This document shows positions 5,238 through 12,150 of a DNA stretch of 64,000 nucleotides, piece after piece (positions within the stretch are counted from its first letter, which is position 1; the number at the start of each line of letters is the position of its first letter). A program made the translations under genes and the position numbers. This stretch comes from Dictyostelium discoideum (lineage: Eukaryota), in assembly GCA_000004695.1 (NCBI GenBank), contig CM000151.3, positions 3,776,001-3,840,000 on the forward strand, written 5' to 3'. A model generated the notes under the pieces. That model was given only the letters and a program-made list of their open reading frames with translations. It did no database searches and had not been told where the DNA came from.

Positions 5238-6033
5238 TTAAACGTGTAAGTGCAAATGTTCAAAATCATTGTAAGTGTCAGTTTCTTTATTATCATCTAT
5301 ACTTTCATTGATATCAATGTGTCTTGAGGAAGAGTCATTTGATGAAGGTGCTTGATCAATAGCATTTGAATCGTCTTTGATACAGATTACATTACACTTT
5401 GCATGTTCAAGGATGTAACGAGAAGTTGAGCCAATGAATATCCTTTTGATTGGTCCAATTCCTCTTCTTCCAACTACTAGATAGTGAATATCTTTTTCAA
5501 CTGCTGCTTTAATTACAGCTTCTCCAACATGATTTCCATGGCCTAACAATGCTTTAACATTTTGAACACCTAAATTTTTACATAAATTAGCTCTGTTTAT
5601 TAAAATTGATTTGTGTTTTCTCTCAATTGCTTTCAATGTTTCTTTAAAATATATATTAATGTAAATATTAATATTTAATTTTTTTTTTTTGTTTTTTTTT
5701 TTTTTTTTTTTATTTTATTTTATTTTATTTTATTTTATTTTATTTTATTTTATTTTATTTTATTTTATTTTATTTTATTTTATTTTATTTTATATATATT
5801 AATTAATTTATTAATTTATTTTATTTTATTTATTTATTTATTTATTTTTTAAAAAAAGACATACCTGAAACAACAACCGCAGAAATTGCGGACGATGGGA
5901 ATGTAATTGGATCCTCTGCTACAGAAATTAGGTATAACAAATCCTTATCTTTTTGAAATACATGATTAATAATTTCTTTGATTGAATGTTCAGTATTACT
6001 TCCTTCATCCACTGCTATCATATAATTTACCAT
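5238..6033 (-). CDS. Universal stress protein (UspA) family protein; join(5865..6033,5238..5641).
   Basis: Exon 1 MVNYMIAVDEGSNTEHSIKEIINHVF...AVVVSG ends before GTATGT (phase 1). Exon 2 follows TTTTAAAG and contains VKALLGHGNHVGEAVIKAAVEKDIHYLVVGRRGIGPIKRIFIGSTSRYILEHAKCNVICIK, which is the USP ATP-binding G-x2-G-x9-G-S/T motif. The intron holds a (TATTT)n repeat. The ORF-track M at 5636 is actually TTG. Confidence 0.85.
5711..5790. repeat. (TATTT)n repeat, about 16 units, inside the USP intron.
   Basis: Read directly from the sequence. Confidence 0.95.
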
Positions 6034-6246
6034 TTTTTTTTTTTTTAATTAATTTTTGGATAAAAAAAAAAATTTTATTGGTATTATTTTTTTTTTTTTT
6101 TTTTTTAATTGAAATTACAACAAAAAATAATAAAATTAAATTTTTTTAATTATTTTTTTTTATTATTTTTTTTATTTTTTTTATTTTTTTTTTTTATTAT
6201 TGATTTTGTATGAAAAAATAAAATGGTAAATTATATTATTTTAATT

Positions 6247-6310
6247 TTTAGAAGATGAAATACAAAATTTTATTATTTTTTTAATACAATTTTGTATTTC
6301 ATCTTCTAAA
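6247..6310. promoter_or_regulatory. Perfect 23-bp inverted repeat (TTTAGAAGATGAAATACAAAATT / AATTTTGTATTTCATCTTCTAAA) with an 18-nt spacer, in the divergent USP / glycosyltransferase promoter.
   Basis: Arms at 6247..6269 and 6288..6310 are exact reverse complements. Confidence 0.6.
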
Positions 6311-6355
6311 TATTAAAATAATACAATAAAAAAATTTATATAAATATAACCAATC

Positions 6356-6394
<39 letters not shown>

Positions 6395-6579: not shown

Positions 6580-6702
6580 ATGATTTCAAAGATTTTTTCA
6601 AAACAATCAATATTTGCAATATTTGTTATATGTTTGTTTATATTCATTTTAAATAATAATATTATTGACACAAAACTAAAAGAAAAACATATTAAAGAAC
6701 AA

Positions 6703-6791
<89 letters not shown>

Positions 6792-9402
6792 TAATAATAA
6801 AAAATCAAACGTAAAGAAAAATTCATATAATAGTTTTAGAAATATTAATTTTTTAAATGAAGAATTTCCTCAGCTCTACACATATAATCCTGAAGAGCAG
6901 AATATAGAAACATACCACTACTACGAGGAAGAGGAAGAAGAAGAAGTAGAAGTAGAAGTAGAAGAGGGAGAAGAAGAAGAAGATAATTATCAAGATAAAA
7001 ATAAATTAAAGATATTTAACAATGAGATTAAAGAGGAATGGTCAAAATTACCAAGTGATATAATGGATAAAAAGAGGATTTGTATAGTTACAACTGAAAT
7101 AGAGGGACCAGTTTTGGGAGGTGGTATTGGAACGGCATATACAGCATTATCACAAAAATTGAATGAGGATGGACATCAAATTACAATTGTTTTAGTGAAT
7201 AAAGTGAAGAGATTAACAATGGAGCATTGGATAGAACTTTACGGACGACAAGGTATAGAGTTGGTGATTTTAGATTTCTTTCTATTGGATCCTCTATCGG
7301 TTGGATCAAAGGTTGCAATGGAAAATCAGAATAAATTGAACCCAAATGAAACTGATAATCTCATTGGAATGATAGGTTGTACTGGACCATGCATTAGATC
7401 CTATCGTACTTATCTTTGGTTATCAAGACACGAGAATCAATTTGATTTCATACATTTTCATGACAATGGTGGTATGGCCTATTTCTCAACTCTATCACAA
7501 CGTCAAGGTTTACACTTTCAAGAGGTAAACATTGTCATTGGTGGTCATGGTCCACATCTTTGGGAAAGAATCGCAAATTCTGCCAATCTAGATGATGGTA
7601 AACATTTCGAAGTAGATTATTTAGAAAGAAAATCGGTTCAATTCTCAAATTATCTTATATCACCAAGTAATTATATGTTAAATTGGATGACTTATAATCG
7701 TTGGGAAATTCCAAAGAATTCTTTTGTTCATCAAAATTTATTACCTGGTAAAAATCAACAATCCTTATCACCAATGTTATTAAATGATTTTTTATTTAAA
7801 CAACAACAACAACAACAACAAGATATTAATGCTGATCAGCAAGATGATGACAATGATAATGGTTTAGAATTACATGATTTTAATGAAATATTATTTTTTG
7901 GTAGATTAGAGTCAAGAAAAGGTTTAGATATATTTTTAAAAGCTTTAGAATCATTATCACAACAAATAAAGAGTTATTCAATGAAAATTACATTCCTTGG
8001 ATCAAATACGAAATTAATGGAATTCAATGTAATGGCTGATTTATATATTGATTCAGTTTGTAGACGATTGGATATTTATTGTCAAATTTTAGTTGGAAAA
8101 TCTCATACTGAAGCAATTCAATATTTAACTACCAATAAACATGATAAATTGGTTGTGGTCGCTTCACCCATTGATAATTCTCCAAATACCGTATTGGAAT
8201 GTTTAACTCATCGTTTATCTTTAATTGCAACCAATGTTGGTGGTATACCTGAACTCATTCATCCAAATGATAGAAAGAGGGTTTTATTCGATCCAAAACC
8301 AAAATCATTGATCAAATTAATTAAAACTTTAAAAGAAACTGGTATCTCTGCTGCTAGATTTTCAACTGATGAATGGACTCGTCAAATGATTTGGAGTAAT
8401 TGGCATTCTATTGCACAATTGGATTCTTCAATAACAAATAGAAATAGAAAATTAAATAGTGTTAGATTAGATAATATCAAAAAGAAATTATTAACTATAG
8501 TTTTAATATATGATAGAAGTAATTTAGAAACTTTATTAAAAAATATAAACTCTATTTCATCTCAACCATCACCATACTTTAATTATAATATTTTAATAGC
8601 AAAATCTTCAAAGATTCCTGGTGGTTCAACTGATAAAATCTCTCCAAAACTTTCAAAACTTTTAAAATCTTTAAATATTTTTTATCTTGTAACTGAAATT
8701 AATGATAGTTTATTACAACCATTTCAACCATGGAACTCAAAAGAAATATTAGAACATTCAACAGGTGATAATATCCTCTTTTTAGATCCTTTAGATTATC
8801 TCTCTTCAAATGCTTTATATCTATTAGGAAGAGTTGATCAATTTACAAATGCTCAAATTATCACTGGTTCAGTTTTATTCAGTGGAAATAATTCAATTAT
8901 AATTGATAAAGTTTTTGATCAAATTAATAAAAATATTGGAACTACTACTACCACTACTACCACCACCACCACCACTACAACCACCACTACAACTTCTTCA
9001 ACTACATCTTCTTCTTTAGATCATTCACCAGATACAAGTATAACTTCAATTTATATGGGATGTACTGGTATGCCTGGTATAATGTATAATTGTTATGGTA
9101 GTAGTAATTTATTAATAAGTAGAGTAGCTTTACAAGAATTAAGTAATCAATATCCTGTACTCAAGAAAAACAATAGCGCTGATAATGATCATTTTGATCA
9201 TTTAGATTTCAATAGCGATATTGAAAATAGTGGTACTTGGGACTTTTATGCTCATGCAACAAGTAATGGTTATTCTTTACAAACTATACCAAAGGTTTTA
9301 TTTATCTCTGATAGATTAGAATATGAACCTCAAATTACCTATAGTCAAGAAACTAGAGTTTTAAAAAATTTTGATAGTAAATATTATAATATTTTTATTT
9401 AA
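6580..9402 (+). CDS. Type II membrane glycosyltransferase with an N-terminal signal anchor. It has a GT4 (GT-B fold) catalytic domain followed by a second, GT2-like region. It is probably spliced at 9376/9377 to the downstream sulfotransferase exon (see next feature).
   Basis: MISKIFSKQSIFAIFVICLFIFILNN is a signal anchor. GT4 signatures are ICIVTTEIEGPVLGGGIGTAYTAL and the EX7E-type motif ECLTHRLSLIATNVGGIPELI. The GT2-like stretch is LTIVLIYDRSNLETL. The ORF is 940 codons with an acidic/poly-N linker. A phase-1 GTAAAT donor at 9377 sits 9 codons before the in-frame stop. Confidence 0.85.
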
Positions 9403-9409
9403 TTTTATT

Positions 9410-9457
<48 letters not shown>

Positions 9458-9501
9458 AATTAATTTTTAATTTTTTTTTTTTTTTATTATCCAAAAAATA
9501 G

Positions 9502-10646
9502 ATATTCTACCACCAACATTTGAATTATCATCATTAGCGACAAGACATTTTTTAACAACAAAGAAGTTATATTTAAATGAGATTATTAATGTAAATACAA
9601 AATCAAAAGAATGCGAAAGATTATTAAATAGTGGTAACATCAATAATATTAATAGTAATAATAATAATAATAATAATAACCAAGAGTTAATTAAAATATC
9701 AAATGATAATTTTAATGAAAATGGTGAAGAGAATCATATGGAAAGTAGAAATCATATTAAAATGTTATTTGTTAGAGGTCATGAAAAGAGTGGAACAAGT
9801 TGGTTAAAAAAAGTTATTGATTTACATCCAAGAATTTTCATGGCAAAACAAGAGTTTCATTTCTCTATTATGGAGGAAGGTTTAGATAAATTTACATCGA
9901 AACCATGGGCAGCTGCACAAGAACCATATAAATCTTATAGTAGAAAATGGTATAGATCATTTGTTAGAAATATTTTATTATCAGGTGTATCACCATCATT
10001 GGCTCCATTAATTAATTGGATCGGTGAGAAAACTCCATCACCATTGGCACCAATTATCTCTGGTTCAAGATATATTCTAATCATTAGAGATGGTCGTGAT
10101 GTGGTTATAAGTTTATTTTGGCATTATGTAAGATTAGGTGGTTTTGAAAATTGGTGTGGTCCAAATCAACATCATTTAGTCAATCCAGATTATGTCAAAG
10201 AGTATCGTGCTGATAATGGTACAAAAGATTACTTCTCAATTTATCCAGAAAGATTATTGGAAAAAGAAATTTGCTTTAGAAAAATCGCTTCTGGTTGGGC
10301 AAAACGTGTTAGAGAGGATCAATCTGTCATTGATGCATTACAATCGAATCCAGTTGCTTCGGTTTTCTCTTTACGTTATGAAGAATTACATAGAAATCCT
10401 GAAGAAAATAGAAAAGCTCTTTACCAATTTTTAGATTTAGATTATAATGAAGCTGAACCATTATCTGTTGAAGATAAAACTATACCCGGTGGTTTCGATG
10501 AAAAATCTGATAAAAATAAATTCTTTAGAAAAGGTGAAATTGGTGATTGGAAAAATTATTTCACTGATAATAATAAACGTTGGTTTAAAGAAGAAACTGG
10601 TAGTTTATTAGTTGATTTAGGTTATGAATTAAATAATGATTGGTAA
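9502..10646 (+). CDS. Sulfotransferase domain exon (PAPS-dependent, Sulfotransfer_1-like). It has no start codon of its own and is most likely the 3' exon of the upstream glycosyltransferase gene via intron 9377..9501. Combined model: join(6580..9376,9502..10646).
   Basis: The 5'-PSB motif is RGHEKSGTSWL and the 3'-PB motif is IIRDGRDVVISLFWHY. The reading frame is open with no ATG from 9471 to the first M at 9738, which is 80 sense codons in 78% AT DNA (chance probability about 4e-4). Acceptor AAAAAATAG|AT at 9501 needs one carried nucleotide. The GTAAAT donor at 9377 in the upstream ORF supplies exactly phase 1, and the splice gives ...NFD-N-ILPPTFELSS... Confidence 0.7.
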
Positions 10647-10785: not shown

Positions 10786-12150
10786 TTATCTTAATTTAAC
10801 AGATAAATGATTTTCTAATTTTTCACGTAAATTAAATTGAAGAATATCAATCTCTTCATTTGTTAAATTTCTATCCATTGAACGATAATAAATTCTATAG
10901 CAATGAGAAGTTTTATTTAATTTTTTATTTGTAAAATTATCAACTAAATCAACTCTTTCAACTAAATCACCACATGATTCACGAACAAATTCATAGAATT
11001 TATTTTCATGAAAGTTTTCTTCATCTTCTAACCAAAAACTAACATCTTTAAAGCATGATGGATATTTACTAAATTGTTGAAATTGAACACCTTTAATATC
11101 TATATCAGATAATGTTGAGGAGGAGGAGGAGGAGGAGGAGGAGGAAGAGGAAGATGAAGTACTGATAGACTTATCAACTCCTTTAAATTGATTATGAAAT
11201 CTATTATCTTCAGTCCAAAATAAACGAATATCAGGAATATTGAATAGGATCATTGCTAATCTTTCTAAACCAATACCAAAGGCCCATGCTCTATCATTCG
11301 ATAAACCACAATTATTCATGATTGAAGGATGAACAACACCACAACCTAAAACTTCTAACCATTGACCTTGGAAATAAATTTCCATTTCAAATGAAGGAGA
11401 AGTGAATGGGAAATAAGCATCAATCCAACGAACTTGTAAATCTTGACCAATGACACTACGTATCATTGATTCTAATGATTGTTTAAGATCTTTTTCAACA
11501 TCTTTTACTGATTGCAATTGTTTATAGTTATTATCTTCATAGTAATCTATGGTTTCATCGAATGGTTTACCATCTATAGCTAAATTTACTTTATCTTTGA
11601 ATACTTTTACACCTTCCATTTGATGAAAAACTGGATAGTGTACAGCATCGATAGTATCTCTACGATAGACATCACCTGTTACCAAGAATGCTTTTTCTTG
11701 CTCACGTAAAAGTTGAGATTGATGTGCACTTGTATGAGTTCTTAACAATTGATCCTTACTGAAATAGTAGGTATCATTTGGACTTCTTCCAACATGATCC
11801 ACTGGAAATAATAATTCATCAAAGTTCTCTTTAACACTTACTTTTGGTTCAAATGAATCAAAGAATTGGAATTTATGTTCTTCATCTGATAATTTATTTT
11901 GAAAATGATATTGAATCTTTTTCTTTATAATATTCAATGGATGATCTCTTTTACAATGTAAATTCTTACCAATCTTTTCTGTAATTGATTTTGAAATATT
12001 TCCATTCTCTGGTATTAACTTTGTATAGTCAATTTTACCACTACTATTGTTAGTTGTAGAACAATAAAAATTTATATTTAAATAACTTTTATTTAATCCA
12101 TCATATCTATTAACTATATTATTATTAATATTTCTTAAAATTTTGATCAT
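10786..12150 (-). CDS. mpheS: Mitochondrial phenylalanine--tRNA ligase (monomeric FARS2-type), single exon.
   Basis: Class II aaRS core with FPFTSPSFEMEIYFQGQWLEVLGCGVVHP and GIGLERLAMILFNIPDIRLFW. C-terminal FDX-ACB anticodon-binding domain (FSKYPSCFKDVSFWL...HCYRIYYRS). Confidence 0.9.
   Translation of the reverse strand: MIKILRNINNNIVNRYDGLNKSYLNINFYCSTTNNSSGKIDYTKLIPENGNISKSITEKIGKNLHCKRDHPLNIIKKKIQYHFQNKLSDEEHKFQFFDSFEPKVSVKENFDELLFPVDHVGRSPNDTYYFSKDQLLRTHTSAHQSQLLREQEKAFLVTGDVYRRDTIDAVHYPVFHQMEGVKVFKDKVNLAIDGKPFDETIDYYEDNNYKQLQSVKDVEKDLKQSLESMIRSVIGQDLQVRWIDAYFPFTSPSFEMEIYFQGQWLEVLGCGVVHPSIMNNCGLSNDRAWAFGIGLERLAMILFNIPDIRLFWTEDNRFHNQFKGVDKSISTSSSSSSSSSSSSSSTLSDIDIKGVQFQQFSKYPSCFKDVSFWLEDEENFHENKFYEFVRESCGDLVERVDLVDNFTNKKLNKTSHCYRIYYRSMDRNLTNEEIDILQFNLREKLENHLSVKLR

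Follow-up and report, generated by a model that had tools for sequence, protein, structure and literature searches.

The subject of this analysis is a 64,000-nucleotide (nt) stretch of the Dictyostelium discoideum genome (GenBank assembly GCA_000004695.1, contig CM000151.3, positions 3,776,001 to 3,840,000 of the forward strand), called the window below, and within it the forward-strand gene at positions 6580-10646. The window has a base composition of 77.6% AT, and D. discoideum proteins were its best database matches. The best explanation of the locus as a whole, to which we assign a probability of about 80%, is one two-exon gene encoding a type II membrane protein of 1,313 amino acids (aa) that carries a glycosyltransferase (GT) module of family 4 (GT4), a module resembling family 2 (GT2-like) and a sulfotransferase (ST) module. 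The features of the gene are given below with residue numbers of the spliced product, where pLDDT is the predicted local distance difference test score of the structural model, PAPS is 3'-phosphoadenosine 5'-phosphosulfate, and 5'-PSB and 3'-PB are the 5'-phosphosulfate-binding and 3'-phosphate-binding motifs.

6580-9376 (+): exon 1, codons 1-932 and the first base of codon 933; open reading frame and donor read directly
6607-6666 (+): N-terminal signal-anchor, residues about 10-29, SIFAIFVICLFIFIL..., modelled as a helix
6703-6798 (+): (AAT)n tract coding for poly-Asn in the stem; read directly, pLDDT <50
7066-8412 (+): GT4 (retaining, GT-B type) module, residues about 163-611
8479-9369 (+): GT2-derived (GT-A type) module with degenerate motifs, residues about 634-930
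8932-9030 (+): poly-Thr/Ser insertion within the GT2-like module; read directly, pLDDT <50 for residues 785-817
9377-9501 (+): spliceosomal intron, 125 nt, GTAAAT...AATAG, GT..AG, phase 1, 96% AT
9502-10646 (+): exon 2, from the last two bases of codon 933 through codons 934-1313 to the stop
9504-9737 (+): coding linker without an ATG of its own, ILPPTFELSSLATRHFL..., predicted to form a long helix and then to run into low-complexity sequence
9756-10643 (+): PAPS-dependent sulfotransferase domain, residues about 1018-1313
9774-9806 (+): 5'-PSB loop RGHEKSGTSWL, with K1028, S1029, G1030 and T1031
9852-9854 (+): E1050, candidate catalytic base, invariant (E117 of alignment A3)
10080-10127 (+): 3'-PB motif IIRDGRDVVISLFWHY, with R1128 and S1136; core RDGRDVVIS

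The upstream open reading frame (ORF) ran from ATG to stop over 6580-9402 (940 aa), with its own TAA at 9400-9402, and the product of exon 1 was colinear with orthologues P0001-P0009 in alignment. The donor GTAAAT occupies 9377-9382, and exon 1 has its last base at 9376, in phase 1 and 26 nt ahead of that TAA. The sulfotransferase ORF has its first ATG at 9738, preceded in frame by a TAA at 9468-9470, and the acceptor AAAAAATAG (9493-9501) opens exon 2 at 9502 with exactly one carried base required. Joining 9376 to 9502 restored a single frame, with a coding sequence of 3,942 nt, 1,313 aa and no internal stops. The open run before ATG 9738 was 89 codons long, or 78 counted from the acceptor, and at the stop probability of 0.091 per codon given by the window composition such a run has a chance of 2e-4 (89 codons) to 6e-4 (78 codons); in the shuffled window 7 of 5,832 stop-free runs reached at least 78 codons. 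G+C content was 27% in exon 1, 4% in the intron and 4-11% in the flanking intergenic DNA, and within exon 2 it was 20% for the 236 nt preceding the ATG and 31% for the remainder. This split of coding from non-coding DNA supports the exon and intron assignment. The sequence features listed in the initial annotation, which had first proposed the splice, were all found by direct reading at or near where it had placed them, including the phase 1 donor at 9377 and the acceptor at 9501 with its need for one carried nucleotide. Its chance estimate of about 4e-4 falls within the computed range, and the open run it described stands, although not at the 80 codons it counted.

The junction peptide, which reads RVLKNFD-N-ILPPTFELSSLATRHFL in the window, was kept in nine aligned orthologues, namely those of a second D. 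discoideum strain, D. purpureum, Polysphondylium violaceum, Tieghemostelium lacteum, Heterostelium album and Cavenderia fasciculata, together with three dictyostelid transcriptome or metagenome proteins. The Met at 9738 was not conserved, being V, L, Q or T in other species, and the read-through tail SKYYNIFI, which ends the unspliced GT ORF, had no counterpart in other species. Four further dictyostelid species carried the intron, each in phase 1 and at a codon identical to that of the window, with the following lengths.

D. purpureum: 63 nt
P. violaceum: 78 nt
H. album: 68 nt
C. fasciculata: 89 nt

In the second D. discoideum strain (GCA_054859355.1) donor and acceptor were identical to those of the window, and the intron measured 82 nt compared to 125 nt. 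The 43-nt difference comes from the length of the (AAT)n and poly-T tracts and is not a multiple of 3, and it therefore fits the behaviour of non-coding DNA. In T. lacteum the intron was precisely absent, and the 1,151-aa GT4/GT2-like/ST protein (P0006) is encoded by one unbroken genomic ORF of 3,456 nt (L009 1001-4456); the fusion is therefore independent of any splice prediction. Eight independent contigs (3.7-3.8 kb, JGI and Logan assemblies) each had an uninterrupted coding sequence for a close relative of the P. violaceum protein (P0003) and carried no other gene, the pattern expected of spliced mRNA. A Trinity transcript of Ceratiomyxa fruticulosa (P0222, 1,059 aa) was colinear with the dictyostelid protein over GT4, GT2-like and ST modules, and a partial Physarum polycephalum transcript (P0042) extended from the middle of the GT2-like module through the linker and the ST. 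As to whether other dictyostelids keep the fusion, it was present in all six dictyostelid genomes examined, and it was also found in Physarum and Ceratiomyxa. Judged by the conserved intron, the T. lacteum ORF and the junction-spanning transcript contigs of other species, the splice 9376/9502 is real and joins both parts in frame into the single fused polypeptide originally proposed. On this sequence evidence the fused architecture is old within Eumycetozoa. The public model of the C. fasciculata protein (P0009, 871 aa) was N-terminally truncated by annotation; its missing GT4 half lies just upstream (L010 2212-3708), in one frame running into the P0009 model, with a 55% identity by tblastn to residues 69-513 of the H. 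album protein.

The highest Kyte-Doolittle values over 19 residues were obtained for segments that begin at residues 5-12 (maximum 2.54). Since residues about 10-29 form the only strongly hydrophobic segment in the protein, a type II signal-anchor topology is predicted, in agreement with the initial annotation, with a short cytoplasmic tail ahead of the anchor. An N-terminal hydrophobic segment was also present in P0002-P0004, P0006 and P0008 and absent from the P0005 and P0007 models. The stem that follows consists of poly-Asn and acidic, low-complexity sequence with a low-confidence model, and its poly-Asn tract differed in length and composition in the protein of the other D. discoideum strain (P0001). 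The poly-Thr/Ser insertion in the GT2-like module was absent or different in orthologues. Three tracts varied in length between the D. discoideum strains, namely (AAT)n at 6703-6798, an ACN poly-Thr repeat at 8932-9030 and the intronic (AAT)n at 9412-9455, and the coding low-complexity tracts fall in low-confidence loops of the model.

The GT4 module scored 44.5 bits against Pfam Glycos_transf_1 (cut-off 26.4) and 38.7 bits against Glyco_trans_1_4 (cut-off 27). Its motifs were invariant or nearly so across dictyostelids and bacteria (15-36 sequences): the GGIGT loop (G181-T185), H323, GRLExRKG at 441-448 (G441/R442/K447/G448), D532-x7-E540 corresponding to (E/D)x7E, and GGIPE corresponding to GG..E (G554/G555/E558). 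The AlphaFold model had a mean pLDDT of 78 with catalytic domains mostly >90, and values of about 90 and above extended over most of residues 160-610, except for loops near 240-260 and 390-430. A Foldseek search with the 940-aa model returned only GT-B folds among its top 50 PDB matches, with GT4 and GT5 enzymes such as glycogen and starch synthases, MshA and BshA. As read from these alignments, the catalytic motifs of the GT4 module are intact.

The middle module did not reach the Pfam Glycos_transf_2 threshold in the window (15.4 bits against a cut-off of 23.3); orthologue P0007 scored 22.6 bits and P0008 gave no match. The module was, however, colinear with the PF00535 domain of bacterial proteins that combine GT4 and GT2, and positions 433-656 of the joint-alignment profile A2 matched solved GT2 structures with E values down to 8e-22. 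By profile and alignment, the middle module is homologous to GT2 domains. Most bacterial homologues read VDDGS, FMDDDN, GDxN and EDW at the positions where the window reads AKSS, FLDPLD, GSSN and E-NSG-TW. All 10 dictyostelid sequences carried non-acidic replacements at DDG, at the third Asp of DxD, at the Asp of GD.N and at the Asp of ED; at the DxD site T. lacteum has FDYQNQ and P0007 has VDVDD. Only the first Asp, D736, is retained, and it is invariant among dictyostelids. Because the acidic residues of DDG, DxD, GD and ED have been lost, the module is probably not catalytic and would be a GT-A relic kept as a scaffold or acceptor-binding domain. Its GT-A fold is suggested by the sequence profile and a predicted alternating beta-alpha pattern; the Foldseek search with the 940-aa model gave no support for it among the top 50 matches listed, all of which were GT-B. 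The GT2-like label of the initial annotation thus stands as a statement of descent and fails as a Pfam match, and the enzyme it described has three modules as proposed but probably not three catalytic ones.

The linker peptide was conserved in all orthologues, with the helix at residues 10-41 of the exon 2 model. Downstream of it, the ST domain scored 47.2 bits against Sulfotransfer_1 (cut-off 22) and 35.6 bits against Sulfotransfer_3 (cut-off 27), so that both the GT4 and the ST assignment made at the outset were supported above Pfam cut-offs. In alignment A3 (the window ST and 44 relatives, 45 sequences) the invariant positions included G92, G97, T98 and W100 of the 5'-PSB, R195, D196, G197, R198, D199 and S203 of the 3'-PB, and the Gly of GEKTP. 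Profile alignment to solved structures placed K1028-S-G-T on PKSGT of SULT7A1 and PRSGT of tyrosylprotein sulfotransferase (TPST), and RDGRDVVIS on RNPKDTAVS of SULT7A1 and RDGRAVVHS of TPST. K1109 of GEKTP aligned with the Lys of TPST NKDP, and E1050 with the second Glu of TPST CGEE, which we take to be the catalytic base of TPST (from TPST2). The core of the ST model had pLDDT >90, and a PDB fold search with this model gave 60 matches at E <= 1e-3, the best being TPST1/2 followed by cytosolic SULTs. Among the 50 fold matches listed almost all were sulfotransferases, the one exception being a retinol dehydratase with a sulfotransferase fold. With the 5'-PSB, Glu, Lys and 3'-PB all intact in sequence, the ST module looks catalytically competent.

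A near-perfect palindrome of about 45 bp was found in the AT-rich intergenic DNA upstream of the gene (6230-6327, with wider arms at 6166-6275 and 6282-6391). Its predicted fold had an energy of -41 kcal/mol and a z-score of -10.8 compared to shuffled sequences. The 21-nt core of its arms occurred only at these two places in the window, and the second D. discoideum strain has one exact arm copy in the corresponding position (L008 2666-2686). The palindrome had no Rfam match, and scanning the whole window for tRNAs and Rfam families gave no hits. The divergent upstream neighbour (5238-6033, - strand) is a Usp-domain gene, annotated as Usp plus FNIP in the second strain (L008 451-2370). A Usp gene was likewise the upstream neighbour in C. 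fasciculata (L010 571-1252), which suggests conserved local synteny; other neighbours were found in D. purpureum, P. violaceum, H. album and T. lacteum. Downstream lies a convergent 454-aa phenylalanyl-tRNA synthetase-like ORF (10786-12150, - strand), whose equivalent on L008 has PF01409 and FDX-ACB recorded and fits a mitochondrial-type single-chain enzyme; this ORF contains an internal poly-Ser tract, seen as (GGA/GAG)n on the + strand at about 11118-11150.

Kil1 is the only characterised Dictyostelium sulfotransferase and is required for the mannose-6-sulfate (Man-6-sulfate) epitope on glycoproteins; knockout of kil1 is reported to remove every detectable Man-6-sulfate epitope, and the identity of the sulfated factor that killing of bacteria requires has yet to be established (PMC3534706). 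The window gene could encode a slime-mould-specific enzyme of bacterial ancestry in which GT4 and ST act in tandem, held on a dead GT2 scaffold, to make a hitherto undescribed, Kil1-independent sulfated glycan, a proposal we regard as tentative and put at somewhat below even odds. The protein would reside in the Golgi or secretory pathway with its modules lumenal. There the GT4 module would act with retention, transferring a sugar from a nucleotide-sugar donor, and the ST would sulfate that glycan from PAPS, on the same residue or on a neighbouring one, coupling glycosylation and sulfation on one chain, while the helical linker and the GT-A relic would keep both active sites together. A glycan acceptor is supported because the ST subfamily recurs fused to GT4 or GT2 in bacteria, and because bacterial GT4+GT2 homologues carry a methyltransferase in the position of the ST. 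If this proposal is true, the protein would provide the first natural fusion of a glycosyltransferase to a sulfotransferase in a eukaryote that is amenable to biochemical study, and a conserved second sulfotransferase coupled to a glycosyltransferase would be a reasonable candidate for other Dictyostelium sulfated glycoconjugates.

That the locus instead holds two independent genes, with the GT ending at TAA 9400-9402 and the ST translated from ATG 9738 of its own mRNA, is very improbable. In the raw sequence each ORF is complete by itself, but the 78 codons before ATG 9738 code for a peptide conserved in all orthologues whereas the ATG itself is not conserved, five genomes share the position and phase of the intron, the T. 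lacteum gene is a single unbroken genomic ORF, transcript contigs from three other species cross the junction, and the read-through tail lacks a counterpart elsewhere. It is unlikely, too, that all three modules are catalytic and that a working GT2 leads to two different sugars and a sulfate being added: the replacement of DDG by non-acidic residues in 10 of 10 dictyostelid sequences, the loss of the third Asp of DxD and of the Asp residues of GD.N and ED, the FDYQNQ of T. lacteum and the sub-threshold Pfam score all speak against this reading; in its favour are the homology of the middle module to GT2 domains, its good conservation among dictyostelids with an invariant D736, its confident modelling and the VDVDD of P0007. 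In a third alternative the ST would have protein tyrosine, or a small molecule other than a glycan, as its substrate, and the fusion would only co-localise unrelated activities. In its favour, tyrosylprotein sulfotransferases are the closest solved folds and align best at the N-terminal end, and there are stand-alone bacterial relatives of about 300 aa without a known substrate. Identity to TPST is, however, only 15-16% and cytosolic SULTs score similarly, the repeated bacterial fusions of this ST subfamily to GT4 or GT2 point to glycans, and the fusion has been kept across Eumycetozoa; we consider this alternative unlikely.

Several further points weigh against the preferred account of one two-exon gene for a GT4/GT2-like/ST enzyme that couples glycosylation and sulfation. 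In the Ceratiomyxa transcript P0222 the ST motifs are degenerate (AYEETGLD for GHEKSGTS and RDGRHILVD for RDGRDVVVS), and the coupling of GT and ST is therefore not universally kept; in that lineage the ST could be the dead module. Given the invariant D736 and the conservation of the GT2-like module within Dictyostelia, an unusual activity of that module is possible. The solved folds nearest to the ST are those of protein-tyrosine sulfotransferases. The loss of all detectable Man-6-sulfate epitope in the kil1 knockout means that the product of the window enzyme would have to be another or a minor species. There may also be a minor intron-retaining isoform of 940 aa that carries the GT only. 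Neither the spliced protein nor either of the two separate ORFs had an identical entry in the protein collection, and a junction-peptide search for D. discoideum transcript fragments gave nothing, although the same word-index search also missed P0001-P0009 and is thus uninformative. Finally, gtr1 has been cited as a putative sulfotransferase (Le Coadic et al., 2013, PMC3534706), and the window gene is probably D. discoideum gtr1, annotated as 'putative glycosyltransferase', a match inferred because a glycosyltransferase-type name cited as a sulfotransferase fits the locus. Literature searches for natural GT-ST fusions and for the window gene found only this one-line mention of gtr1.

The fusion is not new in itself, as it is already annotated in public records, and the suggestion that it was undescribed for an amoebozoan did not hold. 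A D. discoideum fused model of 1,303 aa (NCBI KAM9954340.1) was 96% identical to the window product with the same junction, the differences including the lengths of low-complexity tracts. NCBI and UniProt also hold fused models for five other dictyostelids, labelled 'putative glycosyltransferase' or 'hypothetical protein' and carrying both Pfam domains. The dictyostelid orthologues, among them D. purpureum DICPUDRAFT_42846, P. violaceum CYY_000548 and the protein of H. album PN500, have a 47-96% identity over the full length, the same module order and the same junction peptide; they differ in low-complexity tract lengths, and that of T. lacteum lacks the phase 1 intron. The present analysis makes modest additions: the GT2 module is degenerate, the intron is conserved but was lost in T. 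lacteum, the fusion is old, both halves have bacterial affinities, and the ST motifs have decayed in Ceratiomyxa.

Outside the slime moulds, the nearest relatives of both halves of the protein were bacterial. Bacterial GT4+GT2 polysaccharide glycosyltransferases (P0010-P0040, metagenomic and from Planctomycetota/Ensifer), labelled 'O-antigen biosynthesis protein' or 'cell wall biosynthesis', had about 25-30% identity over GT4+GT2 with the GT4 motifs in common, covering up to 57% of the query with E values down to 1e-65. Most of them retain DDG, DDD and ED in GT2, unlike the Dictyostelium protein, and none of those retrieved had the GT4-GT2-ST order or a eukaryotic signal-anchor. In two metagenomic members (P0010 and P0011) a C-terminal domain in the position of the ST resembles a class I methyltransferase (PF13489 recorded for P0010, with which P0011 aligns), which suggests an exchangeable 'terminal modifier' slot after GT4+GT2. 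The N-terminal extension of P0012 was considered by eye as the C-terminal half of a sulfotransferase and was dropped, having no Pfam match. Bacterial GT-ST fusions were found as GT4-ST (P0140, P0161), GT4-ST-ST (P0224) and GT2-ST (P0235, P0237), with an ST 31-36% identical to that of the window; they differ from it in domain order and number and have no degenerate GT2 spacer.

Among sulfotransferases, Kil1 is likewise a Dictyostelium enzyme; it is described only as a sulfotransferase, with no glycosyltransferase module mentioned in the text consulted, and the comparison with the window ST is one of descriptions. TPST1/2 (PDB 3ap1, 5wri, 9wwe) were the best ST fold matches, with a template modelling score of about 0.6 on the target and alignment of the 5'-PSB, Glu, Lys and 3'-PB, but they share only the low identity given above, are stand-alone enzymes and probably have a different substrate class. 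The initial annotation had drawn a parallel to the N-deacetylase/N-sulfotransferase (NDST) of heparan sulfate. Membership of that family was rejected, since the Pfam scan found no deacetylase domain and heparan sulfate sulfotransferases were weak matches (E about 1e-4), the nearest folds of the ST being TPST and SULT. The parallel remains as design logic only: NDST combines two consecutive steps of glycan processing in a single type II Golgi protein that has a PAPS sulfotransferase at its C-terminus, and where its first domain is a deacetylase, that of the window protein is a glycosyltransferase.

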